A DNA stretch of 64,000 nt, from the IMG/VR virus record IMGVR_UViG_3300028840_006907, positions 256,001-320,000 of that record. One strand, written 5' to 3'. The number at the start of each line of letters is the position of its first letter. Within the stretch, counting starts at the first letter, position 1. Below, in pieces: positions 657 to 29,783 of the stretch. Both the position numbers and the translations under genes were made by a program. The notes under the pieces were generated by a model that did no database searches, had not been told where the DNA came from, and saw nothing but the letters and a program-made list of their open reading frames with translations. Source of the stretch: a virus.

Positions 657-2878
657 TGGGTAAACAAATTTTTAGTTCAGAGGGTTCCGATACTTTCACT
701 GTACCAAAAGGAGTGACTTCCATTACTGTCAAGGCATGGGGTGCAGGAGCTGGTGGTGGAGGGGGTGGAACGGCTAGTGTTGGTGGAGCCGGAGGTGGTG
801 GAGGTTATGTTCAGGGTGATATATCTGTAACACCTGAAGAAACCCTTAATATTCATGTAGGTGGAAATGGAGGTTTAGGAACTTTTACAGGTACCGCAGC
901 TTCTGGTGGTGGGGGAGGAGGTAAATCTTCAGTTTACAGAAGTACAACTCCTTTATTTGTAGCTGGCTCTGGAGGAGGCGGAGGTGGTGGTGATAATTCA
1001 TCAGGGACTCCGGCGGGAGCCGGAGGTGCTGGTGGAGGAAGTACTGGTGGGTCTGGTGGTTCTTCCGGAGGAGCTAGTGGCGGTAGTGGTGGCACTCAGT
1101 CAATTGGTGGAACACAGGGTTCTGGAGGTCAAAATGCAGGAGTTTTTGGAAAAGCTCGTGCAGAAACCACTTTAAATAATGCCTTAAATTTTGATGGTGA
1201 TCCTGAATATGTTACAATAGGAACAGATTCTGTTTTTAATTTTACTAATTCTTTTACCCTTGAATGTTGGATTAAACCCGATAATGTAACAGGATCTAAA
1301 AGGGTAATAAGTTCAAGATCATCTGATACCAATAATGGAGTTGGATTTGGTATTAACGGTAACAATCCTGCTTTTACAACATATGGTAAACAAGATTTTA
1401 CTTCTACTGGAACCGTTTCAGCAGGAGTTTGGGCTCATATAGCAGTAGTCTTTACTTCAGGTAATAATGCAAGATTTTATATAAATGGAGAGTTTATAAA
1501 TCAGGTAGACGGTACCCAAGCAGCTACAACTTCTGGTATATATATGGTTCTTGGTATGCTTGGTTTTTATGATGATGAACAATATTGGGTAGGTGAACTT
1601 GATGAAATAAGAATGTGGAATGATGAGCGTACTGATAAAGAGATATCTGATTATTATGCTCAAACTCTTACAGGTAGTGAAGCAAACTTAGTCGCTTACT
1701 ATAAATGTAATGAATCATCAGGTACAAATCTTCCCGACGAAACCACAAATAGTAATGATGGCACACTCCAAAATATGGAAGATGCTGATTGGGTTACATC
1801 AAGTTGGTCTCCATTGACAGACGCTGCTGATGCTGGGGCTGGTGGTGACGGTGGAATGGGTACTGGCACTGGGGGTGGTGGCTCTGGTGGCACAACATAT
1901 GGCGGTGATGGTGGAATTGGTGATAGTGGTGGCACCCCTGGATTTTCTGGCGGTGGCGGAGGCGGTGCAGGCTATGGTGGAGGTGGCGGGGGATCATGTT
2001 CGGTTTCTGGCGGAGACGCTGGTGGTGGTGGGGGCGCTGGCTCTAGCTATATTATAGGTACCGCTACGTCAACTACCAATACGCAAGCATCAGGCCAGAA
2101 TCCACCTAATACGGGCGACCCAGACTATACTGGTTCTGTAGGAGTTGGAGGAAATGGGGGTAGTACAAGTACAAATGGGAATAATGGTAATGATGGTTTA
2201 ATAGTTATCAGTTGGGTTGACCCTCCAGCATATATAGGTATGAAATTTGAATCAGATAGTTCACAATTTTTGTCTTCTGTAGCAAATTTTACCGCTCCTT
2301 CTAGTACAACTGTTACATTTTGGTTATCTTCTACTAATCTCACAGGATTAAAAAGAATTATTGGTTGGTCCGATTTTTGGGAAATAAAGACGATTGATAA
2401 TGATATATCTAATGATTTAAATGGAGAGTTAACCACTTATTCTACAACTCCATTAGATCTTAATACTCTTTATCATGTTGCTTGTACATATAATTCCTCT
2501 GATGATGCTGCGAAAGTATATATAGATGGGTCTCTTGATGGTACGGGTTCAAATACTGAAACTCCTTCTGGAACAACACTACAAATAGGTTTTAGACCTG
2601 GTGCACCTGACGGTTATTTTGACGGTTATTTAGGTGATATAAGAATTTATGATAGGGTTTTATCTGATTTTGAAATAGCCACAATTCATGCATGTCGAGG
2701 AACTGATGGAATAGTCCATGGTTTACGTAATAGGTATTTATTAAATGAAAGAGCAATGAATGTTGCTGCTGATGGGACAGGTTCGGTTAAAGATATGGCT
2801 CAGGATCAATTAAACATGACTCCAAATAATAGTCCTGTTTATGAAGGAACAACATTAAAATATAGAAGGATGGGTTGA
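656..2878 (+). CDS. Gly-rich repeat protein with two LamG-type jellyroll segments (fiber/adhesin-like)
   Basis: 740 aa; ATG overlaps upstream stop (TAATG); long poly-Gly tracts; LamG-like motifs LDEIRMWN and GDIRIYDR; C-terminal module shared with neighbours. Confidence 0.7.
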   Translation: MGKQIFSSEGSDTFTVPKGVTSITVKAWGAGAGGGGGGTASVGGAGGGGGYVQGDISVTPEETLNIHVGGNGGLGTFTGTAASGGGGGGKSSVYRSTTPLFVAGSGGGGGGGDNSSGTPAGAGGAGGGSTGGSGGSSGGASGGSGGTQSIGGTQGSGGQNAGVFGKARAETTLNNALNFDGDPEYVTIGTDSVFNFTNSFTLECWIKPDNVTGSKRVISSRSSDTNNGVGFGINGNNPAFTTYGKQDFTSTGTVSAGVWAHIAVVFTSGNNARFYINGEFINQVDGTQAATTSGIYMVLGMLGFYDDEQYWVGELDEIRMWNDERTDKEISDYYAQTLTGSEANLVAYYKCNESSGTNLPDETTNSNDGTLQNMEDADWVTSSWSPLTDAADAGAGGDGGMGTGTGGGGSGGTTYGGDGGIGDSGGTPGFSGGGGGGAGYGGGGGGSCSVSGGDAGGGGGAGSSYIIGTATSTTNTQASGQNPPNTGDPDYTGSVGVGGNGGSTSTNGNNGNDGLIVISWVDPPAYIGMKFESDSSQFLSSVANFTAPSSTTVTFWLSSTNLTGLKRIIGWSDFWEIKTIDNDISNDLNGELTTYSTTPLDLNTLYHVACTYNSSDDAAKVYIDGSLDGTGSNTETPSGTTLQIGFRPGAPDGYFDGYLGDIRIYDRVLSDFEIATIHACRGTDGIVHGLRNRYLLNERAMNVAADGTGSVKDMAQDQLNMTPNNSPVYEGTTLKYRRMG

Positions 2879-2881
2879 TAA

Positions 2882-5173
2882 ATGGGACAGCAATCTTTCA
2901 GTACAGCCGGTTTAACTTCATTTCAAGTTCCTGTTGATATTACATCTATAACGGTAAAGTGTTGGGCTGGTGGAGCTGGTGGAGGAGCCGGGGGGACTTC
3001 TGGTGTTGGAGGAGTGGGTGGCGGTGGTGGCTATGTTCAGGGAGATATAACCGTCACTCCTTCGGAAATACTTAGTATTCATCTTGGGGGTGCTGGGAAT
3101 TCAGGAAGTTTTGGAGGAACTTCTGGTTCTGGAGGTGGTGGTGCTGGTCTATCTAGTGTCTCGCGTGGCTCAACACCTTTATTTGTAGCCGGAGCAGGTG
3201 GGGGAGGCGGTGGTGGAGACAATAGTAATCCGGCTGCTGGTGGAGCTGGTGGGGCAGGAGGTTCCTCTACCGGAGGAACTGGAGGCAGTTCTCTAAATGC
3301 CAATGGAGGAACTGGTGGAAGTCAAGTATCTGGTGGTACTGGTGGTACTGGTGGTATAGTTTCAGGTGCTGCTGGAGGTGCCCCTATTTCTGCAGCAGCT
3401 AATTTTGGTAATTGCCTTGACTTTGATGGAACAGATGAATGGGTCTCTTCAGCTAATTCTTATTCTAATCCTCAGACTTTTACAACTGAGTTATGGTTTA
3501 AAACTACCACTACTTCAGGAGGATTATTAATTGGTTTCGGAAACAGTCAAACAGGAACTTCTACCAGTTATGACAGAAGGATCTGGTTAAGTAATTCCGG
3601 AAATGTCTATTGTGGAGTTTATGCTGGATTAATTTTAGGAGTTCAGACGGTAAATTCTTCTGGTACATATAATGATGGAGAATGGCATCATGTTGCAATG
3701 GTCCATGACTCTGGAGGGTTTGAATTATTTGTTGATGGTATATCACAAGGAACAAATGCAAATCCTTCACAAGATACTTTTACAGGTTACTGGCGACTCG
3801 CAGGAACTACGGTTTGGTCGGGATGGTCTCCTGCTCCTACTAATAATTATTATGTAGGTCAAATTGATGAAGTCAGATTTTGGCAAGAAGCTCGAACAAC
3901 TTGTCAATTAATAAATAATGCAAATAAATATTTAGCTGGAACTGAGACTAATTTAGCTTTTTATTGGAAATTAAATGAATCTTCCGGTTCTACCGCAAAT
4001 GATGAAACTACCAATAATAATGATGGCACACTCCAAAATATGGAAGATGCAGACTGGGTTACTTCTAGTTGGAGTGGTAAGTGGATAGGTATTGGTACTG
4101 GAGGTGATGGTGGAGACGGTAATGATGGAGGGACTACTAGAGGATCAGAGGCTAATGGAGGTATCACTTGTGCTGGATCAGGTGGTACAGCCGATGTCGG
4201 TGCTGCTGGTTATGGTGGCGGTGGTGGCGGTGGCGCTGGTTACGGTGGAGGTGGAGGAGGCTCGGCTTCTCAAGCTTCAAATGCTGGTGGAGGTGGTGGA
4301 GGAGGTGGCTCCAGTTATATAATTGGTTCTGCTACGTCAACTACCAATACGCAAGCTTCGGGACAGAATCCTCCCAACACAAGCGACCCGGACTATACTG
4401 GTTCTGCAGGAGTTGGTGGAAATGGGGGTGCTACAAGTACTGCAGGATCAAATGGTAATAATGGTTTGATTGTTATTAGTTGGACAGAACCTCCGACATA
4501 TGTTGGGATAACATTTGTAGCGAGTAGTTCTCAAAGATTGGCATCAGTAGCAAATTTTACTCCTCCTCAAAATTGCTCCGTATCATGGTGGTTAAAACTA
4601 TCTTCGTTGAATCAGTTTGGGAGGACAGCAAGTCTAAGTGTTAATTGGGAAATAGGTCTATCTGATAATGCAGGTACTCCTACTGCTAATGGTATTATTA
4701 ATGCTATGAATAGTGGTGCTCTTTTGTATTCTTCAACAAGTCTTCAAGCTGATCTTCGTTATCATGTTGTATGTACAGCAACTTCTAGTGCCCGTCAAAT
4801 ATTTTTAAATGGTGTTCTTGATAATAGTGCTGCTTCTGGAGGGACTGCTCCTGCAGCAGGGACTCTTTATGTTGGATGTCAATATGGTGGAACTCTATAT
4901 TTTCTTGATGGGGCTATAGAGGATTTAAGGGTATATAATCGGATAATTACTGCAGAAGAAGTGGCTACAATTTATGCTTGTGAAGGAAGAGACGGTATAA
5001 CATATGGCTTAATACATCGATGGCCTATGAATGAAGGTGCAGCAGGTGTTGTAGCGAGTGGTACTGGTTCTGTAAAAGATGAGGCTACAAATCAATTGAA
5101 TTTAACTGCAACTAATAGTCCAGTTTATTCTGGATCACAATTGAATTATAGACGAAAATATAGGACTCATTAA
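2882..5173 (+). CDS. Gly-rich repeat protein with two LamG-type jellyroll segments (paralog of 656-2878)
   Basis: 763 aa; same architecture; shares identical peptide NDGTLQNMEDADWVTSSWS and near-identical DNA patches with 656-2878. Confidence 0.7.
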   Translation: MGQQSFSTAGLTSFQVPVDITSITVKCWAGGAGGGAGGTSGVGGVGGGGGYVQGDITVTPSEILSIHLGGAGNSGSFGGTSGSGGGGAGLSSVSRGSTPLFVAGAGGGGGGGDNSNPAAGGAGGAGGSSTGGTGGSSLNANGGTGGSQVSGGTGGTGGIVSGAAGGAPISAAANFGNCLDFDGTDEWVSSANSYSNPQTFTTELWFKTTTTSGGLLIGFGNSQTGTSTSYDRRIWLSNSGNVYCGVYAGLILGVQTVNSSGTYNDGEWHHVAMVHDSGGFELFVDGISQGTNANPSQDTFTGYWRLAGTTVWSGWSPAPTNNYYVGQIDEVRFWQEARTTCQLINNANKYLAGTETNLAFYWKLNESSGSTANDETTNNNDGTLQNMEDADWVTSSWSGKWIGIGTGGDGGDGNDGGTTRGSEANGGITCAGSGGTADVGAAGYGGGGGGGAGYGGGGGGSASQASNAGGGGGGGGSSYIIGSATSTTNTQASGQNPPNTSDPDYTGSAGVGGNGGATSTAGSNGNNGLIVISWTEPPTYVGITFVASSSQRLASVANFTPPQNCSVSWWLKLSSLNQFGRTASLSVNWEIGLSDNAGTPTANGIINAMNSGALLYSSTSLQADLRYHVVCTATSSARQIFLNGVLDNSAASGGTAPAAGTLYVGCQYGGTLYFLDGAIEDLRVYNRIITAEEVATIYACEGRDGITYGLIHRWPMNEGAAGVVASGTGSVKDEATNQLNLTATNSPVYSGSQLNYRRKYRTH

Positions 5174-10782: not shown

Positions 10783-11141
10783 TAACTGAAATTGATGATG
10801 ATAGTAAAGACATAAAGATAAAATTAGGAAATTTATTTGAAAAATATGAAAATCTTTATCGGGAAGGGAATAGACAGTTTAGAACAGAGAGAATAGCTTC
10901 TGCTGGGTCAATGGATGGTCTGGAAGAATTTCGTCGTTTGATGCTTATTGTAAAAAGAAATAAGGATGTAGTGGCCTCGCTAATGCGGGGTATAGCTAAT
11001 TTTAGGTCTATTTCAAATTTTAAGTTTGTAGAAGAGGAAGTAGAAATTTCAAAACCGAAACCAAAGAAAACAAAGAAAGCTACTCCTGAAAAAGTGATCA
11101 TACCTATACCAATAGTAGCGGAGGAATTTAATGGCGAATAA
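10761..11141 (+). CDS. hypothetical protein
   Basis: 126-aa ORF overlapping the previous by 22 nt; K/E-rich C-terminus. Confidence 0.5.
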   Translation: MPDFNKLITEIDDDSKDIKIKLGNLFEKYENLYREGNRQFRTERIASAGSMDGLEEFRRLMLIVKRNKDVVASLMRGIANFRSISNFKFVEEEVEISKPKPKKTKKATPEKVIIPIPIVAEEFNGE

Positions 11142-14100
11142 ACGAATAAGAGTTGTAACAGCGCAAGATAATGTACCGAAACGGGCAACTCGAAGAAAAG
11201 TAGTCAGCAGGGATACTAATCCTAAGGTGACAAATCTTACAGATAATGAAAAAAGAGCCAGACGGATTGCTACAACAACATCTATGGGATTCGGTCTTCG
11301 TTCTGCAAGTGATATTGTAAATAGCAGTGAAGCAAACTTTTACTCCCCCCAATTAAGTACTGATTTTCTTGAGAAGCCACAGAATCTACGTGAACGTAGA
11401 GCCTTTTATAGATTCTTTTATAATACGAATGAAATTATCGGACAATCTATTGATATTCATTCCACATTACCTCTTTCGAAATTGCGTCTCGTTCCTCCAA
11501 AAGGGAGAAATAAACATCAGAACAATTACGTTTTTAAGTTTTTCCAAAAGATGTGTGATGAAATGAAGCTCTTTAAAACACTTATTGAGATAACTCATGA
11601 ATACTTTCTTTTTGGTAATTGCTTGGCTAAGTATGCCGAGGTAAAGACTCCCTTTGGGTATAAGGAAGCGAAAGAGATAGAAGTAGGTGACTTCTTATTG
11701 ACAGATAAAGGGCGCTATAGGAAAGTCTTGAAGAAATGTGTAAGACCTTCTGAAAATGTTCTCAAAGTTAAATGTTGGAAAGATTTTAGGGAATTACCTG
11801 TTTCTGAAGAACATCCTATAGAAATATTAAAAGATGATGGCTTTGTTTTTGCCCAAGCTGAGGAATTGTCCTTAAACGACTATATCCGAGTTACTTGGCC
11901 TACTGAAATATCTGATAAAGAATATGTTCCTTTTGAATTTACAGATAAATATACAAAAGTGGAAAATGGCTATGAGTTAAAATTTGAAGTACTGCGTACC
12001 AGAAATCCTCATGCTTTCCGTGCTCGAAAAGAATTATTATCATGGCTAAGTTCTTTATCTAAACCAGTAATAAGGACAAGAAAACAGTTGTCCGAAGATT
12101 TTGATGTTCCTCTTTCCACATTGAATAATGTGATTTATAAACTTGGGAAAGAACTTGATGTAAAATTTCATGAAAGAATAGGTGCTTCAGGTTTTCAAAA
12201 AGGTTCTCAAGTAAAATGGTTTCCTATTGAGGACATAGAAGTCACGGATTCCTATAGTATTCATAAAACCCTATTTTTAGATGCTATTGATGGAATTGAT
12301 ATCAATAATGATTTTGCGTATCTTGCAGGATATTGGTTGGGAGATGGCACTTTGGCTCGTGATTCGCAAAGAGGGACATGGGGTCGTGGTTTGTGGCAAA
12401 TTTCAGTAGACCAGGAATTTGAAGGTTTAAATCGGATACGAAGTATTTTACATAATTTTTTTGGTTCTGGTAATGTGATAGAATGGAATTCGGGTAATCT
12501 ACTTTATTTAAAAGTTATCTCAAATCCTGCTTTTTTAGAATGGTGGGCTGAAAATTTTGGTGAAACTTCTTTCGGTAGAAATTATAAAAGAATTCCTGAA
12601 TGGTTTATAAAACTTCCTATGGAAAAACTTCAAAATTTTCTGGCAGGTTTGATAGATTCAGATGGTTGTATTAGTGTGAGTGGTGAAAATCAGAAATGTA
12701 TAACGAATATCTCAATGGCGTCTCGAAATATAATGGATTCTGTAAGAGACATAACTTTAAAATGTGGTGTTGTAGTGAATTACAACGAAGGAACTGAAAG
12801 AGAAGTTACTTTACCACAGGGAGACAAATGTTTCTCAAAAAAAATGTATACTGTAACAGCCTCAGATGAAGAATCCTGTAAAATTTTAACTCAATATGCC
12901 ACAAAAAGTATACCTGTAGATGCCCAATTCTCAGAAATGGGAAGATATTGGATAAGAACTGATTCAGGTTTAGCCTTCAAAATTAAGTCTATAAAAACAG
13001 AAGAATATAATGATTTAGTATACAATTTTGAAGTAGAAGAAGACCATACCTATCAAGTAGCTGGTTTTAGTACTCATAATTGCTTTATTTTTGCTGAAGA
13101 AGATGATTGGAAGGAAGGTATAACTACCGAAAACATAGGACAGAAAAAAGAAGAGGCCAAACAACGTTCCCAGCTCCTTAAAGATAAATTTGATATTAAG
13201 GATAAGAATCCTCTTTATAAAGGATGGAAAAAGCTTCTTATACTTCCTCCTGACCAGGTTAGGGTTCGTAAACTTCCTCTTACTGATGAGGTAGCAATTG
13301 AATATATGCCTGATCCGGAAACTCGAAAATTTCTGACTTCTGATATACCAATTGATCCTACAGATCCTACAAGAAGGTTAGACTATTCTATTTCTAATGA
13401 ATTGCGGGAAAAAGTACGTCAAAGTGGGGTTATACCTTTGGATACCGATCCTTATACAGGTTCACATGTTTTTCATCTGGCAAGAAAGAAATCACAATAT
13501 GAGCCTCTTGGTGTATCTATCGTTGAGCGTTGCATAAATACTCTTGTTTTAATGGATAAATTGAGACAGGCTCAGACATCGATTGCATCGCGTCACATGA
13601 CTCCTATGCGTGTTGTATGGGCTGAGGACTTAAATTCGGATGATGTCGATAATTTACGTGAGCAGGTTGATCTTGCTTTAGTAGATCCTGATTTCAGTAT
13701 TATTGCCAATTATGAAATTCACTGGGAAGAAATGGGATCGAATGGCCGTTTATTAGATGTAGAAGCGGAAATGGAAAGCTCATTAAATAGATTATTTGCC
13801 GGATTAGGTGTGACTCGGGAAATGTTAACTGGTGAAGGTACTTATACAGGGAGTAGAGTTTCATTAGAAATAATGAATACTATGTATCTTCTTTTCCGTG
13901 AAGTGCTCCAGGATTATATAGAAAATACATTGTTTAAGCCTATAGCTAAAAAGAAGGGTTTTATAGAATATGATGAATATGGTAATGAGACACTTCTTTA
14001 TCCGAAAATCAGTTTTACCCGATTGGCTATTAGAGATAATGAGCAATATTTTGACGCAGCCTTTCAGTTATATCAGAAGGGTTCAATTTCCATCGATCTT

Positions 14101-14484
14101 ATTTTGGATATTCTTAATATTGATCCTGATGCGACCAGGGAAAAGATTGAACAAGATCTGTTTACTGTTAATGATAGTCTTTTCAATGAAATGATGAGAA
14201 ACCTTTATACAAATGTGGCTGCCCCACTTGTAGAGGAAACTAATGTTACTGAGAAATTGGCTAAATATCTTCATTTAGAAAAGACTGAAAAACCTGAGGC
14301 CACAGAAGGTGAATCTCGATTTAGTTCTGTTAATGGAAAGGATTACAGGAAAAAGCTTTCAAAAGTCATGAAATACTTTATTGATAATCCTGAAAAATTA
14401 AATTCCATTTTTGCAAAGAATGGACAGTTAAAACCTAAACAAGCGAGAAATAATCAATGCGTTGTCGCTCAATCCCGGAATTAA
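11131..14484 (+). CDS. portal protein interrupted by an intein
   Basis: 1117 aa; GGAGG RBS; exteins (aa 1-163 and 651-1117) total ~630 aa and carry a portal-like LFAGLGVTREMLTGEG motif; sits upstream of scaffold-like and capsid-like genes. Confidence 0.6.
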   Translation: MANKRIRVVTAQDNVPKRATRRKVVSRDTNPKVTNLTDNEKRARRIATTTSMGFGLRSASDIVNSSEANFYSPQLSTDFLEKPQNLRERRAFYRFFYNTNEIIGQSIDIHSTLPLSKLRLVPPKGRNKHQNNYVFKFFQKMCDEMKLFKTLIEITHEYFLFGNCLAKYAEVKTPFGYKEAKEIEVGDFLLTDKGRYRKVLKKCVRPSENVLKVKCWKDFRELPVSEEHPIEILKDDGFVFAQAEELSLNDYIRVTWPTEISDKEYVPFEFTDKYTKVENGYELKFEVLRTRNPHAFRARKELLSWLSSLSKPVIRTRKQLSEDFDVPLSTLNNVIYKLGKELDVKFHERIGASGFQKGSQVKWFPIEDIEVTDSYSIHKTLFLDAIDGIDINNDFAYLAGYWLGDGTLARDSQRGTWGRGLWQISVDQEFEGLNRIRSILHNFFGSGNVIEWNSGNLLYLKVISNPAFLEWWAENFGETSFGRNYKRIPEWFIKLPMEKLQNFLAGLIDSDGCISVSGENQKCITNISMASRNIMDSVRDITLKCGVVVNYNEGTEREVTLPQGDKCFSKKMYTVTASDEESCKILTQYATKSIPVDAQFSEMGRYWIRTDSGLAFKIKSIKTEEYNDLVYNFEVEEDHTYQVAGFSTHNCFIFAEEDDWKEGITTENIGQKKEEAKQRSQLLKDKFDIKDKNPLYKGWKKLLILPPDQVRVRKLPLTDEVAIEYMPDPETRKFLTSDIPIDPTDPTRRLDYSISNELREKVRQSGVIPLDTDPYTGSHVFHLARKKSQYEPLGVSIVERCINTLVLMDKLRQAQTSIASRHMTPMRVVWAEDLNSDDVDNLREQVDLALVDPDFSIIANYEIHWEEMGSNGRLLDVEAEMESSLNRLFAGLGVTREMLTGEGTYTGSRVSLEIMNTMYLLFREVLQDYIENTLFKPIAKKKGFIEYDEYGNETLLYPKISFTRLAIRDNEQYFDAAFQLYQKGSISIDLILDILNIDPDATREKIEQDLFTVNDSLFNEMMRNLYTNVAAPLVEETNVTEKLAKYLHLEKTEKPEATEGESRFSSVNGKDYRKKLSKVMKYFIDNPEKLNSIFAKNGQLKPKQARNNQCVVAQSRN
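11620..13080 (+). mobile_element. intein with LAGLIDADG homing-endonuclease domain (in-frame within portal gene)
   Basis: Begins with Cys after FGN, ends ...STHN followed by Cys; two LAGLIDADG motifs (LAGYWLGDGTL, LAGLIDSDGCI); 487 codons. Confidence 0.75.
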
Positions 14485-21892: not shown

Positions 21893-22028
21893 GCTAAAAA
21901 AATTTGTAATTATTCTTCATTTAAAACGTTTTGATTTAAAAGAAGTTATCATATTTTATGGTAACTTTTTTTCATTTGTTTAAAAAATTTTGCTGTTCGT
22001 TTCCCTTCTAAACCTTGTATTAATATGT

Positions 22029-23063
22029 ATGGGAAAGAAATGCAAAGATAAGCACTGTTTTAATGATGCTGAAATAAAAGGTTATTGTGTAAGGCATTAT
22101 TTTAGCCTACCTAGATGTGAGTATCCTGGGTGTCCGAATATTACTCTTGTTAAAAACGGCCTCTGTAAAAAACACTCTGAATTAGATCCAAAAGACATAC
22201 CTAATTATAAACCGAAAAGAAGACAGGAATCGGTTAAAAGGGAAATTAAGTTTCCTAAAAATTGGAATCATTTTTCTTTGGAACAGAAAAAAATCCTTCT
22301 TAATAAGGAAACGAAGTCTAAATTAATAATATATATCTTAAAAAAGGATCAAAGTTTTGATGTAAAGAATGCTTGTAAAAGGAGGCTTCTGGAATTAGGG
22401 TGTGAAATACCAAAAGATTTAACGTATAAATGTAAAGTCCCTGGTTGTGATAATGGTCCAAGTTCGTTAAATCATTATACTAGTGGATTTTGCCAAACTC
22501 ATTATCAGCAATATCTAAAAGGAATAATAGATAAAGACGGTAAATCAATCAGGGATTTGGTAGATGTAGGGAAACACAATGCTAATATATCTCCTGAAAG
22601 GGCTATATTATCTAAATATAATACTTTAATTAAAGGCATACACCATATCAGGAAAGAATTGCGAAATCTGAGAGATATGTCCTTTGACATGGATTATAAA
22701 TTTAATTTCTTTCCGCAATTAGGGTTTGTTGAAGACAGTTTAAAATTTATTTATAGTCCCCATTTTATTCTGAAGAATACATCGTTTTTGAAAAACACTA
22801 CATTAAAGGAGATCTTGGGAGAGAAAGAAGAACACGCACAGGTGATGTTGAAATTAGATGGCAATGAATATAAGGGGGAATTGATTCAGGGAGATGAATC
22901 AAAAATATTCATTACTGATAAAATAGATAAGAAAGGTTCAGTAGTTCTTTTTTTGAGAGGTATAGAAGATTTTACAGAATATCCTTTTGAATGCAAAGCT
23001 TATGATAAGGAAACTAACATAGTACAGAATATACGAATAGAGGAAATTCGTGAAGATAAGTAG
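22029..23063 (+). CDS. Cys/His-rich repeat zinc-finger protein (putative DNA-binding)
   Basis: Start set at first ATG (track start is TTG at 21990); three copies of Cx3-4(G)Cx7-12GxCxxH(Y): CFNDAEIKGYCVRHY, CEYPGCPNITLVKNGLCKKHS, CKVPGCDNGPSSLNHYTSGFCQTHY. Confidence 0.55.
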   Translation: MGKKCKDKHCFNDAEIKGYCVRHYFSLPRCEYPGCPNITLVKNGLCKKHSELDPKDIPNYKPKRRQESVKREIKFPKNWNHFSLEQKKILLNKETKSKLIIYILKKDQSFDVKNACKRRLLELGCEIPKDLTYKCKVPGCDNGPSSLNHYTSGFCQTHYQQYLKGIIDKDGKSIRDLVDVGKHNANISPERAILSKYNTLIKGIHHIRKELRNLRDMSFDMDYKFNFFPQLGFVEDSLKFIYSPHFILKNTSFLKNTTLKEILGEKEEHAQVMLKLDGNEYKGELIQGDESKIFITDKIDKKGSVVLFLRGIEDFTEYPFECKAYDKETNIVQNIRIEEIREDK

Positions 23064-23068
23064 GTTTT

Positions 23069-23245
23069 ATGATTATAACGACTCTTTCTTGTGCCATTAT
23101 TTTAATCGCAATATTTTTATTGATATTGTCTTTATTATCTGATTGTGAGCCTTTTGGGATAAGTCGAGATCTAATAGTCACTCTTTTTCAGATATTAAAT
23201 GCTATTTTAGCTGGAGCTATAATCATTTATCATAATTGGGGTTAA
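23069..23245 (+). CDS. small hydrophobic protein (58 aa, two predicted TM segments)
   Basis: ATG ORF below track cut-off; hydrophobic ILIAIFLLILSLL and ILNAILAGAIIIY; weak support. Confidence 0.3.
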   Translation: MIITTLSCAIILIAIFLLILSLLSDCEPFGISRDLIVTLFQILNAILAGAIIIYHNWG

Positions 23246-23249
23246 TTTA

Positions 23250-23459
23250 TTACCACTTATTGTAATTTCTGCCATATGAATTATTTCTATGGTTTTGATT
23301 GCTTCCATTCCTATCATCTTTTTCGGCTTTTCTTTTTTTCCTACAATCTGGACATCTTACTGGATCGCTGAAACCTTTTTGATTAAAGAAATCCTGTTCA
23401 CCGGCTGTGAAAGTAAAATTATTACCACAATCTCTGCAAGCTATCTGTCTGTCAGACAT
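23250..23459 (-). CDS. zinc-ribbon protein (zf-trcl-like)
   Basis: 69 aa; RBS AAGGAGAAAAT; CRDCGNNFTFTAGEQDFF...RCPDCRKKR four-Cys ribbon; last gene of the minus-strand cassette. Confidence 0.55.
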   Translation of the reverse strand: MSDRQIACRDCGNNFTFTAGEQDFFNQKGFSDPVRCPDCRKKRKAEKDDRNGSNQNHRNNSYGRNYNKW

Positions 23460-23473
23460 ATTTTCTCCTTTGG

Positions 23474-24361
23474 TTATTCCTCTAATTTTTCTACAATCGA
23501 TTTCAATTTATTAATATGTTCTTGTTCTTCTTGTATTTTTTCTTCCCATAGATCAGAATCTTTAAGTGAGGTAATAGTCCGGTCTATAAGATTTACGAGA
23601 ACACTCGGTTCTAATGCATCCAGTTCCCAGCTTTCTTCTCCAAATTTTATAATATATGATTGATATCGGGAATCAGTAGTTTTGGCAGGATTGGGAGGAG
23701 GGCTAAATTCCTCTATTTGATTAAAGTTCAGAGCGATACGTTTTACTTCCATTCCACCCATAAATAATTCTAATCGATCAGTTATGTCCCTAGTCATATC
23801 GATCCCAGATGGATCATGATCGCCTAGATGGATGACAATAGGTATCTGTGATTTACCTTTAAATTTCATTGCATGTCTTCTGAATCTGCGACCTGCTGAC
23901 CACATTTCACTTTGAGAAGTATAACCTCTACATGAAAAATATGGCACATCATGTTGATTACATATCCTGTCTATAACTCCGACAAGAGCATCTTTTTCTA
24001 TCCAGACTTCGGGACGATATATTTGGTTTTCCCATTTATCGATTTCATATTGTTCAATACAAGTTTCGATAATTTGAGCTGGGCTGTCCCAATGAGATAA
24101 CTGTTGTAATTCTCTTGTTCTATCTTCAAGTCTATCCCAATCTACTAATCCAGCAAGTCGAGCATCATTGATAATAGATCCCAATCTTTTATACTCTGAT
24201 TGTTTATTAGCAATAAGATCTCGGGAGACAAACTGGTAGTATAATTGACGAAGAGTAAGTTTAAATCCTTGCCCTCTATATTCTTCGATGATATTATTAG
24301 CTTGATCTATTATAGTTAAGCTAGAACTTGCGAAATTTTTCTTGATATATGCTATTTTCAT
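23474..24361 (-). CDS. Spo11/TopoVI-A-like Toprim protein (minimal stand-alone form)
   Basis: 295 aa; winged-helix LRQLYYQ (Tyr41/42), Toprim IEKDA (Glu122) and HLGDHDPSG (Asp181/183) with Top6A-like spacing; start overlaps upstream stop (ATGA). Confidence 0.55.
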   Translation of the reverse strand: MKIAYIKKNFASSSLTIIDQANNIIEEYRGQGFKLTLRQLYYQFVSRDLIANKQSEYKRLGSIINDARLAGLVDWDRLEDRTRELQQLSHWDSPAQIIETCIEQYEIDKWENQIYRPEVWIEKDALVGVIDRICNQHDVPYFSCRGYTSQSEMWSAGRRFRRHAMKFKGKSQIPIVIHLGDHDPSGIDMTRDITDRLELFMGGMEVKRIALNFNQIEEFSPPPNPAKTTDSRYQSYIIKFGEESWELDALEPSVLVNLIDRTITSLKDSDLWEEKIQEEQEHINKLKSIVEKLEE

Positions 24362-25038
24362 TGGGAGATAATATTTATTGTAGTTGGGTATTGGTTTTTT
24401 ACTATGAATTCTGCTTCTGCTTCATTTAAAGCTTCTACTGAAACAGTTTTATTATGAATGATACTTTTTTTATTATAATAAAATTCAATATTCATTTGAA
24501 ATTTTCGTTTCTTTGGTGGGGTAAAATCCTGTTGTATATCTATAAAAAAATTTTGTGGGCCTAAAATAGAAGGACCTATAAGTTTTTCAGTAGTTTCCTT
24601 TTTTATACTAATTATTTCTTTTGGAGAAAATTGGTCTTTTATTTTTTTAATAGCGTCTTCGATATCTTCAGCAAAAATATTAATTGTTGTTGGGGTTTCG
24701 AATTCTTTTGTTTCTCCTAATATTTTATTCTGATAAAAGAGTATCATTTGAACTTCAAATCGTTGATGAGTTTTATACGGCTTATTAAAGTTTTCGATTA
24801 TTCTTTTTTCAAGTGAAGCATAATCAAATTCAAATGTATTAGGACCATAATCCATTCGGCAATGGTTAGGCCATAGAGGTTGTGATTCTGGAGAATGGTG
24901 TTCAGTATATGGATTGGAGCTTTTTGGTTCACCTTTAAGTTCTGGTCTATAAAAATCTGTCCAGTCTGTCAATTGCCCAGTTTTAATAAGAAGTTTTAAA
25001 TATGCTGGATCTATTCTTTTGTATTTATGATCTTCCAT
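24358..25038 (-). CDS. hypothetical protein (first gene of Toprim cassette)
   Basis: Start set at ATG with AAGGAAAATT RBS (track TTG start at 25086); 226 aa; no recognised motifs. Confidence 0.5.
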   Translation of the reverse strand: MEDHKYKRIDPAYLKLLIKTGQLTDWTDFYRPELKGEPKSSNPYTEHHSPESQPLWPNHCRMDYGPNTFEFDYASLEKRIIENFNKPYKTHQRFEVQMILFYQNKILGETKEFETPTTINIFAEDIEDAIKKIKDQFSPKEIISIKKETTEKLIGPSILGPQNFFIDIQQDFTPPKKRKFQMNIEFYYNKKSIIHNKTVSVEALNEAEAEFIVKNQYPTTINIISQ

Positions 25039-25215
25039 AATTTTCCTTAAAAAAGATGTTTGAATTATAACTAAAATATAATTCAAACATCAACAAATTT
25101 TATGTAGAAATAAATTGTATGGGGAGAATCCCACAATATCTAAGTATACTAAAAAGTTTAGACAAAGACAAAGAAAAAAACTAATTTGAAGAAATAAAAT
25201 ACTATATTAAGTAAG

Positions 25216-25248
25216 AAATATACCAAAATAGCCCAAAATATACCAAAA
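25216..25248 (+). promoter_or_regulatory. two direct repeats AAATATACCAAAA in divergent intergenic region
   Basis: Copies at 25216-25228 and 25236-25248 (20-bp centre-to-centre) between the minus-strand cassette and gene 25374. Confidence 0.4.
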
Positions 25249-25373
25249 GTTTTTGCTTATTTCATCTAAGTCTAATTTTTTGAAGTATTTGGAATAAAAA
25301 TAATATAATTTATGATTTATTATGGTTTTTCTTATTAAGTAGATCGTGTATCTAATTTTGAAAGGAGTTGCCT

Positions 25374-28607: not shown

Positions 28608-29783
28608 ATGATTCCAGAAAATAATTCTCTATTAGATTTGACAGGTGAAAAATTTGGAGACTGGAAAGTTATTTCTCGTGCTTCAAATATTAAAGGCCAT
28701 ACCAGATGGCTTTGTGTCTGTAATTGTGGTAAAAAAGTTCCTGTTTATACCTCAAGTTTAAGGTCAGGAAAATCAACTAGTTGTGGGCATAAGAAAAGAA
28801 ATTTCATAGATTTATCAGGTAAAAGATTTGGTAAGTTATATGTAATTGGTGAGACAACAAAAAACCCTTATACCTATGCCTTAAGATATCGTTCCAAAAA
28901 TAAAGGAAAATGTTGGGAATGTTTATGTGATTGTGGAAATAAATGTATTGTAACTTCTAGGAATTTGTTATCGGGTAATACTAAAAGTTGTGGTTGTTTA
29001 GGGATTTTTTCTGATCCCACTAAAGGTTCTAAAAAGGCTCTTTTTAGAAAATATAAAAGAAGTGCAAAAATAAGAGACCATTCTTTTAATATATCTTTTG
29101 ATCAATTTTTAGTTATGATAGATCAAGAGTGCTTTTATTGTGGAAAAAGTCCTTCTCAAACTTTTAAAGGTAATAGAGAAGATTTTCTTTATAATGGTAT
29201 TGATAGATTAGAGAGTAATAGAGGTTATGAAATAGGTAACATAGTTACTTGTTGTAAAGAATGTAATTATTTAAAATGGACAAAAAGTATTAACGATTTT
29301 TTAATATGGCTAAAAATGTGTTATAATCATTTAAATCTTGAGTTCACTGACTCCCTTTTAACTATCCAAATAAATTCAAATGAAGTGGATATTCAAAATA
29401 ATGAAAAATATAATCTAAGAAAAGATGATCCTTGTTATTACTCTAAGAATACGTTTTATAATGTTTATAAAAATGTTTGTGGTAAGAAAAGAGGGTTAAT
29501 TTTTGAATTGAGTTTTGAGGAATTCTTTTCTATTAGTCAAAGGAAATGTTTTTATTGTGGTATAGAACCTAATAAGCTCTTTAAAAAGGGTTCAAGTAAA
29601 GGATTCTTTTATAATGGTCTTGATAGGATAAATAATGACATGGGTTATATCAAAGATAATATTGTTACTTGTTGTTCAATTTGCAATGAATCTAAGATGA
29701 ATTTAGATCAAAAAATTTTTATTAATAGAATCAAAAAATGCTATGGATATTTAAAGAAATATTATTTAAAAAAATTTTTTTGA
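28608..29783 (+). CDS. tandem HNH-like (His-Me finger/zinc-ribbon) endonuclease-like protein
   Basis: 391 aa; N-terminal CxC..C zinc knuckles; two repeats of CFYCG...YNG(I/L)DR(L/I)..N.GY...NIVTCC..CN..K (HNH-like, His replaced by Arg in DR). Confidence 0.5.
   Translation: MIPENNSLLDLTGEKFGDWKVISRASNIKGHTRWLCVCNCGKKVPVYTSSLRSGKSTSCGHKKRNFIDLSGKRFGKLYVIGETTKNPYTYALRYRSKNKGKCWECLCDCGNKCIVTSRNLLSGNTKSCGCLGIFSDPTKGSKKALFRKYKRSAKIRDHSFNISFDQFLVMIDQECFYCGKSPSQTFKGNREDFLYNGIDRLESNRGYEIGNIVTCCKECNYLKWTKSINDFLIWLKMCYNHLNLEFTDSLLTIQINSNEVDIQNNEKYNLRKDDPCYYSKNTFYNVYKNVCGKKRGLIFELSFEEFFSISQRKCFYCGIEPNKLFKKGSSKGFFYNGLDRINNDMGYIKDNIVTCCSICNESKMNLDQKIFINRIKKCYGYLKKYYLKKFF

Follow-up and report, generated by a model that had tools for sequence, protein, structure and literature searches.

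The stretch of viral DNA considered here, a window of 64,000 nucleotides (nt) that spans positions 256,001 to 320,000 of the IMG/VR record IMGVR_UViG_3300028840_006907, carries a compact group of three minus-strand genes whose middle member encodes a protein of 295 amino acids (aa). This protein is almost certainly a member of the Mini-A family, the virus-encoded, stand-alone homologues of the A subunit of topoisomerase VI (Top6A) and of Spo11. The Mini-A gene is preceded by a gene for a 226-aa protein and followed by a gene for a 69-aa zinc finger; the three genes, as called from open reading frames (ORFs), and the parts of the Mini-A gene that encode its predicted functional regions are as follows, with positions counted from the first letter of the window.

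24358..25038, minus strand: upstream partner gene, 226 aa from its ATG (ORF call)
23474..24361, minus strand: Mini-A gene, 295 aa (ORF call)
24047..24343, minus strand: predicted N-terminal winged-helix (5Y-CAP-like) region of Mini-A, about residues 7-105, with R38 and Y41/Y42 (AlphaFold2 model, hhalign)
24236-24238, minus strand: codon for Y42
23612..24019, minus strand: predicted Toprim domain and T2BI box of Mini-A, about residues 115-250
23996-23998, minus strand: codon for E122
23819-23821, minus strand: codon for D181
23813-23815, minus strand: codon for D183
23612-23629, minus strand: WELDAL motif
23250..23459, minus strand: downstream zinc-finger gene, 69 aa (ORF call)

The ORF calls confirm in full the layout given in an initial annotation of this DNA, which had described three minus-strand genes at these coordinates, an ATGA junction and + strand surroundings. 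Genes on both flanks of the group lie on the + strand, and GC skew drops from about 0.2-0.3 to 0.04-0.13 over 20-26 kb. The 226-aa and Mini-A ORFs share a 4-nt ATGA junction (...CCCAATGAAAATA...), and the Mini-A gene has no Shine-Dalgarno sequence of its own, two features that together point to translational coupling of Mini-A to the 226-aa gene. The zinc-finger gene begins 14 nt past Mini-A and is served by a strong AAGGAG site of its own. For the upstream gene, a mechanical ORF allows an alternative 242-aa reading from a TTG at 25086, which falls within a palindrome with a 15-bp stem at 25055-25091; the ATG at 25038 is preceded by an AAGGA ribosome-binding site, and the same start was chosen in an independent gene call on the source contig. 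The order of the 226-aa gene and then Mini-A is kept in three sister contigs (L025, L023 and L189), one of which, L025, also keeps the zinc-finger gene, and this retention of gene order argues that the three ORFs are real genes and not chance ORFs.

Mini-A proteins were described by Takahashi et al. (NAR Genom Bioinform 2019/2020; PMC7671362) as stand-alone homologues of the A subunit, encoded by viruses and about 300 aa in length, that keep the RxxY/FY motif, the Toprim glutamate and DxDxxG, and whose ‘T2BI’ box, with the signature xWELDAL, tells them apart from Topo VI and Topo VIII; a ‘Mini-B’ was not found in that study, nor was a function assigned to Mini-A. All of the published signatures are present in the 295-aa protein: residues 37-43 read LRQLYYQ and supply R38-Q-L-Y41-Y42 (the RxxY/FY motif), residues 121-125 read IEKDA and include E122, residues 180-186 read GDHDPSG and supply D181-H-D183-P-S-G186, and the T2BI box is S244-W245ELDAL250. 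Additionally, the protein matches PHROG 6247 (‘DNA topoisomerase’) over its full length (E-value 9.5e-111) and is 44.1% identical, at 100% coverage (E 3e-79), to the Mini-A of Pseudomonas phage NP1, which serves as the reference Mini-A in Figure 2 of the original description (PMC7671362). Its identity is 44-79% to Mini-A proteins vs 12-20% to Top6A, a gap that makes the placement obvious. The motif positions proposed at the outset (LRQLYYQ, IEKDA, HLGDHDPSG and the four cysteines of the 69-aa protein) thus proved exact residue by residue, and the accompanying allusion to stand-alone mini TopoVI-A-like proteins of mobile elements is borne out by a published family.

The Tyr, Glu and Asp residues singled out as catalytic are retained throughout the family. 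Across 93 homologues, the most distant of them 19% identical, R38, Y42, E122, D183 and G186 are invariant (93/93), D181 is present in 92, the single exception being an alignment gap, and position 41 is occupied by Y in 87, F in four and another residue in two; every residue of WELDAL is retained by 88-92 of the 93. When 50 close homologues are aligned, about 70 positions are invariant, all of the catalytic and signature residues included, and the extra invariant motifs of Mini-A are CRGYxSQSEM, PPPNPAKxTDSR and WELDAL. To judge from its sequence, the 295-aa protein is therefore an ordinary Mini-A with an intact set of catalytic residues. Two invariant blocks, C144-x-G-x-x-S-Q-S-E152 and P221-P-P-N-x-x-K-x-x-D-x-R232, lack a Top6A counterpart and are candidate family-specific surfaces for binding of a substrate or partner. 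The family is abundant, with at least 8000 protein clusters at 90% identity, and tblastn matches of 22-54% identity place it in 82 cultured-phage records, where it is usually labelled ‘DNA topoisomerase’ or ‘hypothetical protein’. One homologue (P0003, at 1763-3010 of locus L024), whose 415 aa include about 120 extra residues at the N-terminus, is encoded beside a divergent HTH_3 repressor-like gene; either a natural fusion or a mis-called start could account for its length.

The kinship of Mini-A with Top6A and Spo11 is visible to some methods and not to others. The initial annotation had suggested a profile search against TP6A_N and Toprim models, and ordinary profiles gave no Top6A or Spo11 match: the 295-aa protein matched nothing in Pfam at E<=0.1, TP6A_N (5Y-CAP) and the PF21180 Toprim model included, and nothing in NCBIfam, and searches of the PDB sequences with phmmer and with hmmsearch, the latter using a 50-sequence Mini-A profile, returned neither Top6A nor Spo11. 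The top PDB matches of that profile were sulfatases (E 0.03-0.14), rejected as chance, and a 46-column match obtained when hhalign was run with a shallow Mini-A profile against a single authentic yeast Spo11 sequence was set aside as spurious. The -glob mode of hhalign gave no sensible Mini-A/Top6A alignment; local profile-profile alignment alone worked. When 93 Mini-A sequences were compared in this local mode with 73 Top6A sequences, gathered from loci in archaeal genomes that were scanned with a single Top6A fragment, a single co-linear alignment was obtained (Mini-A 7-278 to Top6A 76-352; 239 columns; pairwise E 8.4e-4) with all three motifs in register, LTLRQLYYQ being paired with PTIRDLYYR, VWIEKDAL with LVVEKDAV, and HLGDHDPSG with ILTDADPYG.

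Structure prediction leads to the same relatives. The AlphaFold2 (AF2) model of the 295-aa protein has a predicted local distance difference test (pLDDT) score of 85.1, and its N-terminal region consists of helices 12-30, 37-46 and 54-69 followed by a wing. In a Foldseek search of the PDB with this model, three M. mazei Top6A chains were the only matches at E<=1e-3, with alignments spanning 290-318 columns, and the model combines a CAP and a Toprim fold with catalytic residues placed equivalently to those of Top6A. These comparisons support the view, taken from the start, of a stand-alone, shortened Top6A/Spo11-like protein with CAP-like and Toprim domains and an intact Tyr/Glu/DxD set.

Comparison with the known systems sharpens this placement. 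With Top6A (PDB 1d3y, 2zbk, 2q2e, 9o8p) and Spo11 (8uru), Mini-A shares the CAP-Toprim architecture and the motifs R-x-x-Y-Y, E-K-D and D-x-D-P-x-G in equal order and spacing, and Top6A chains are the best structural matches of its model. However, Mini-A has no counterpart of the first ~75 residues of Top6A (of 389), which bind Top6B, and it differs from both Top6A and Spo11 in its low identity (12-20%), its extra invariant motifs and the lack of a B subunit nearby. On this last point the early observation that no GHKL-type B subunit is close by holds, as no GHKL or topoisomerase match was found in window ORFs of at least 400 aa, nor in any ORF within ~5 kb of the three-gene group. From the published Mini-A (NP1, PHROG 6247), which it resembles in size, motifs, T2BI box, viral origin and lack of a GHKL partner, the protein does not differ at all; its context, by contrast, is unusual, in that it lies outside a replication module and is accompanied by a coupled repeat protein and a zf_Tbcl finger. 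Topo VIII, a plasmid-borne type IIB topoisomerase, differs in being fused to or paired with a GHKL B-like moiety and in its T2BI box, which reads RVELNAM where Mini-A has WELDAL (PMC7671362). MksG/JetD, the Toprim nuclease of the Wadjet/MksBEFG systems (PDB 8b7f), is host-encoded, whereas Mini-A is phage-encoded. JetABC/MksBEF genes were not found in the window, and PADLOC gave no match. MksG/JetD is described as lacking the catalytic tyrosine that Mini-A retains.

The 226-aa protein encoded upstream is, in its AF2 model, disordered at the N-terminus and then folds into two beta-beta-alpha-beta repeats; the pLDDT is 54.8 overall, too low for a fold search, and ~88 for residues 178-225, and the model has no ATPase features. 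Pfam reports PF14207 (DpnD/PcfM-like) at 28.6 bits vs a cut-off of 25, a weak match confined to a 21-residue stretch (residues 197-217) that covers only model positions 11-31 of 46, and relatives of the protein reach 17.2 bits against this model or nothing; the literature searched on DpnD/PcfM or ‘Spo11-like’ phage proteins yielded nothing relevant. Only four relatives were found among 1.84 billion cluster representatives, which brings the family to five members in all. Three of these relatives come from L025, L023 and L189, where their genes overlap the Mini-A start, and the fourth is a stand-alone 55-aa domain, such that the family overlaps the Mini-A start in 4/4 loci with readable context. 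The family is tightly and specifically linked to Mini-A yet confined to one small clade, and the 226-aa protein is probably an accessory or regulatory partner of Mini-A.

The 69-aa protein matches Pfam zf_Tbcl (PF13451) over residues 3-47 with 65 bits vs a cut-off of 24 (E 5.7e-18), and contains two CxxC pairs (Cys 8, 11, 36, 39) followed by a basic, Asn-rich tail. Its early description as a four-Cys zinc finger stands, although not as a classic ribbon; the Pfam assignment points to a probable treble clef. A search with a zinc-finger hidden Markov model placed it beside Mini-A in two of 103 loci, namely the source contig and sister L025, and it was absent from sister L023 and from 100 Mini-A loci outside the lineage. 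It was found in one of 50,697 phage records, and that record is not among the 82 with Mini-A. The zinc finger is optional beside Mini-A.

Whether the three genes form a system was addressed with the same 103 Mini-A loci, from which 1440 neighbouring genes were extracted. The initial annotation had described the genes as a three-gene cassette and had suggested examining the co-occurrence of its genes in related genomes; co-occurrence comes to the two loci noted above for the zinc finger and to four relatives for the 226-aa family, and a general functional cassette is not borne out. A conserved three-gene cassette was rejected on the grounds that both partners are lineage-restricted and that the zinc finger is missing even in sister L023; a functional module of three genes is not general and is limited to a tiny lineage. 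When the neighbours were clustered, no family appeared in more than eight of the 103 loci. The broader proposal that ‘Mini-B’ might be any P-loop protein beside Mini-A was likewise rejected, Walker A motifs being present in 4/67 adjacent genes vs 37/714 other genes (p = 0.77), and adjacency of Mini-A to an ATPase is, across all loci, no commoner than background. With neither a widely shared neighbour family nor enrichment of Walker A, there is no general Mini-A partner, ATPase or otherwise, a result that extends the negative ‘Mini-B’ search of PMC7671362 and speaks for a Mini-A that acts alone or together with a host factor. In single lineages, Mini-A does overlap or abut a gene for an AAA+ ATPase, an SNF2 helicase or a RecA-like ATPase (L005 720-1883; L012 2631-4004; L003 3891-4616).

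Upstream of the group lies the divergent intergenic region 25039-25367, in which both promoter-like sites sit and in which the following features were recorded.

25055..25093, minus strand: palindrome with a 15-bp stem, GATGTTTGAATTATA-N7-TATAATTCAAACATC, overlapping a promoter-like TTGATG-18-TATAAT site
25143..25171, minus strand: promoter-like TTGTCT-17-TATACT site (consensus match, and conservation by eye)

The TTTAGTATACT core of the predicted promoter-like site at 25143..25171 is common to sister loci L023 and L189. The palindrome lies 17 nt upstream of the first ATG of the three-gene group and is a possible operator or attenuator, a function that we only infer, given that its conservation does not extend to the sister loci. 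At the other end of the group, a terminator 3' of the zinc-finger gene was not supported, the predicted fold there being no better than that of shuffled sequence (z = -0.38).

As for the source element, the source contig is L022 (JGI 3300017963, Ga0180437_10000019). Contigs that measure 388,651 bp and as much as 469,617 bp encode an identical Mini-A protein, which indicates that the window derives from a huge phage or phage-like element. No close DNA relative of the window was found among the 50,697 phage records, and no tRNA genes were found in its 64 kb. Genes for virion proteins fill the first 21.4 kb, together with a portal-like gene, a protease gene and the gene of a major head protein (phrog_2522, E 3.5e-53), these three genes lying 2-12 kb from Mini-A. 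The virion block gives way to an accessory stretch, in which the minus-strand group is accompanied by two HNH-type genes, and the HNH-like neighbours reported early on do flank the region. The two HNH-type genes bracket the accessory stretch: that at 21990-23063 (357 aa) has three Cys-rich C..C..C..H repeats and weak PHROG HNH matches, and that at 28608-29783 (391 aa) has two clear HNH/endonuclease VII stretches. A strongly hydrophobic 58-aa ORF on the + strand (23069-23245) converges on the zinc-finger gene, the two stop codons lying 4 nt apart, and three loci of the lineage have a homologous ORF of ~60 aa. Farther on, genes for sugar-nucleotide metabolism and glycosylation run along the + strand over 29866-57480, a ~27-kb extent unusual for a phage; among them are a GT2-methyltransferase fusion, a 994-aa glycosyltransferase/methyltransferase, a UDP-glucose dehydrogenase, two epimerases, a formyltransferase, an aminotransferase and NeuB+SAF (a nonulosonic-acid synthase). 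Within the virion block, a 1117-aa ORF (11131-14484) matches portal proteins in its C-terminal half (E 4.6e-30) and has weak terminase- or endonuclease-like matches in its N-terminal half; the ORF may encode an extended portal or be an unusual fusion.

The company that Mini-A keeps in other phages bears on its function. In PaMx25 the gene order is ligase, Mini-A, RecA-like, RecB-like and helicase; a ribonucleotide reductase lies near Mini-A in Pam3, a ThyX-type gene annotated as thymidylate synthase complementing protein in SPN19, and a VirE primase in phi38:2. A Pfam census of the two largest neighbours per locus at 65 Mini-A loci (130 neighbours) was led by DnaB, SNF2, UvrD and DEAD helicases, VapE, YqaJ, ERF, AAA_24 and the beta-clamp. 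With Mini-A thus placed among replication and recombination genes elsewhere, a DNA-breaking role fits better than one in defence, and the best explanation, one that we consider probable, is that Mini-A breaks, and perhaps rejoins, DNA in phage replication or recombination. Of its two parts, DNA breakage dependent on Tyr and Mg2+ is likely, given the invariant catalytic set, and the assignment to replication or recombination is more tentative, at somewhat under an even chance.

According to this explanation, the winged-helix (5Y-CAP-like) domain would bear the nucleophile Tyr42, positioned by Arg38 and Tyr41, and Glu122 of the Toprim domain, together with Asp181 and Asp183, would bind Mg2+, the WELDAL (T2BI) box following thereafter. 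Mini-A would act as a homodimer, by analogy with Top6A and Spo11, with each Tyr42 attacking one strand with help from the Toprim metal site of the other subunit. Both strands would thereby be broken, with formation of 5'-phosphotyrosyl links, and the break would afterwards be resealed or stay open; no ATPase subunit would take part. Such an activity might serve, for example, to introduce or resolve breaks or junctions in concatemers during replication. In the huge-phage lineage, Mini-A would have moved into a small minus-strand island, where it would be translated in tandem with the lineage-specific beta-beta-alpha-beta-repeat protein, the zinc finger being optional.

Several points weigh against this explanation. 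The HH probability of the Mini-A/Top6A alignment is only 24%, so that hhalign supports the Top6A link and is not proof alone, and ordinary profile searches show no such link. The census counts are small, any one family accounting for at most 5/130 neighbours, and Mini-A itself lies here outside a replication module, between virion and sugar-metabolism genes and beside HNH genes. In the literature searched, no biochemical activity is reported for any Mini-A. Finally, Top6A alone is inactive without Top6B, and cleavage by a partnerless Mini-A is thus an assumption.

Other explanations account for parts of the same evidence. The initial annotation had raised a role in defence, anti-defence or host takeover, and in its most explicit form this would make Mini-A a counter-defence or host-takeover nuclease that breaks host DNA or a defence component, or, in a variant, a mimic of Wadjet JetD/MksG that the two small proteins target or regulate. 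We consider this unlikely: PADLOC identified no system, only a chance AbiEi match (E 0.027), and the dominant context of the relatives is replication and recombination modules. Moreover, identity of 54-66% across phages of very different environments, with its ~70 invariant positions, is unusual for arms-race genes, and the invariant Tyr42 points to covalent topoisomerase-type chemistry. That same tyrosine could instead nick an origin and prime rolling-circle-type replication, as proposed in print for the skuldviruses of Asgard archaea; its 5' attachment would be similar to the chemistry of HUH initiators, and the Mini-A gene often lies within replication modules. However, tailed phages with Mini-A usually encode DnaB- or VapE-type helicase-primase initiators alongside, nothing origin-like was identified beside the window gene, and that gene is outside any replication module, such that an initiator role appears quite improbable. 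Lower still do we place a selfish, homing-type gene, in which Mini-A would cut relatives that lack it and spread by repair, hence its high conservation in unrelated contexts. That no neighbour family is shared by more than 8/103 loci, set beside the 54-66% identity of Mini-A itself, agrees with such spread, as do the co-located HNH genes and the active exchange between mobile elements noted in the literature. Yet Mini-A is single-copy and usually sits in operons with 1-4-nt overlaps to differing neighbours, unlike free-standing homing genes, the Walker A and other neighbour tests gave no signal, and no pair of empty and filled sites was either found or put to a test.

The partners themselves invite a further explanation, namely an obligate three-protein machine in which the 226-aa protein and the zinc finger are ‘Mini-B’ equivalents that dimerise, load or license Mini-A. 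The ATGA coupling and the overlap of the 226-aa family with the Mini-A start in 4/4 known contexts agree with it, as does the tight linkage of the zinc finger with its own Shine-Dalgarno site, and the existence of a partner is left open by PMC7671362. Set against these are the five members of the partner family among 1.84e9 representatives, vs at least 8000 Mini-A clusters, the absence of the zinc finger from L023 and from the 100 loci outside the lineage, and a partner model of low confidence without ATPase features. Given that ~100 loci of other lineages lack both partners, the partners are not required by Mini-A in general, and an obligate machine is rather improbable. A milder version, in which the coupled 226-aa partner, sometimes joined by the zinc finger, would license or target cleavage in a self-contained DNA-breaking module, is an outside chance; if true, it would answer the ‘Mini-B’ question for this lineage and give reconstitution of Mini-A activity in vitro a convenient starting point.

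The Mini-A family is already known, having been published in 2019 and annotated in PHROG, and is very common; the window adds no new type of protein. What it contributes is modest: Mini-A, here outside any replication module, is shown to occur also in a phage-like contig whose length is roughly 390-470 kb; 103 loci have no conserved partner of any kind, ATPases included; and one lineage has a tightly coupled small partner that could be tried in reconstitution. The interest that the locus retains comes from the unsolved function of Mini-A and from this lineage-specific coupled partner. No simpler relative of Topo VI and Spo11 is known than Mini-A, a protein of very wide distribution and very high conservation; should it cleave DNA alone, it would offer a minimal model of how Spo11-type breaks form.

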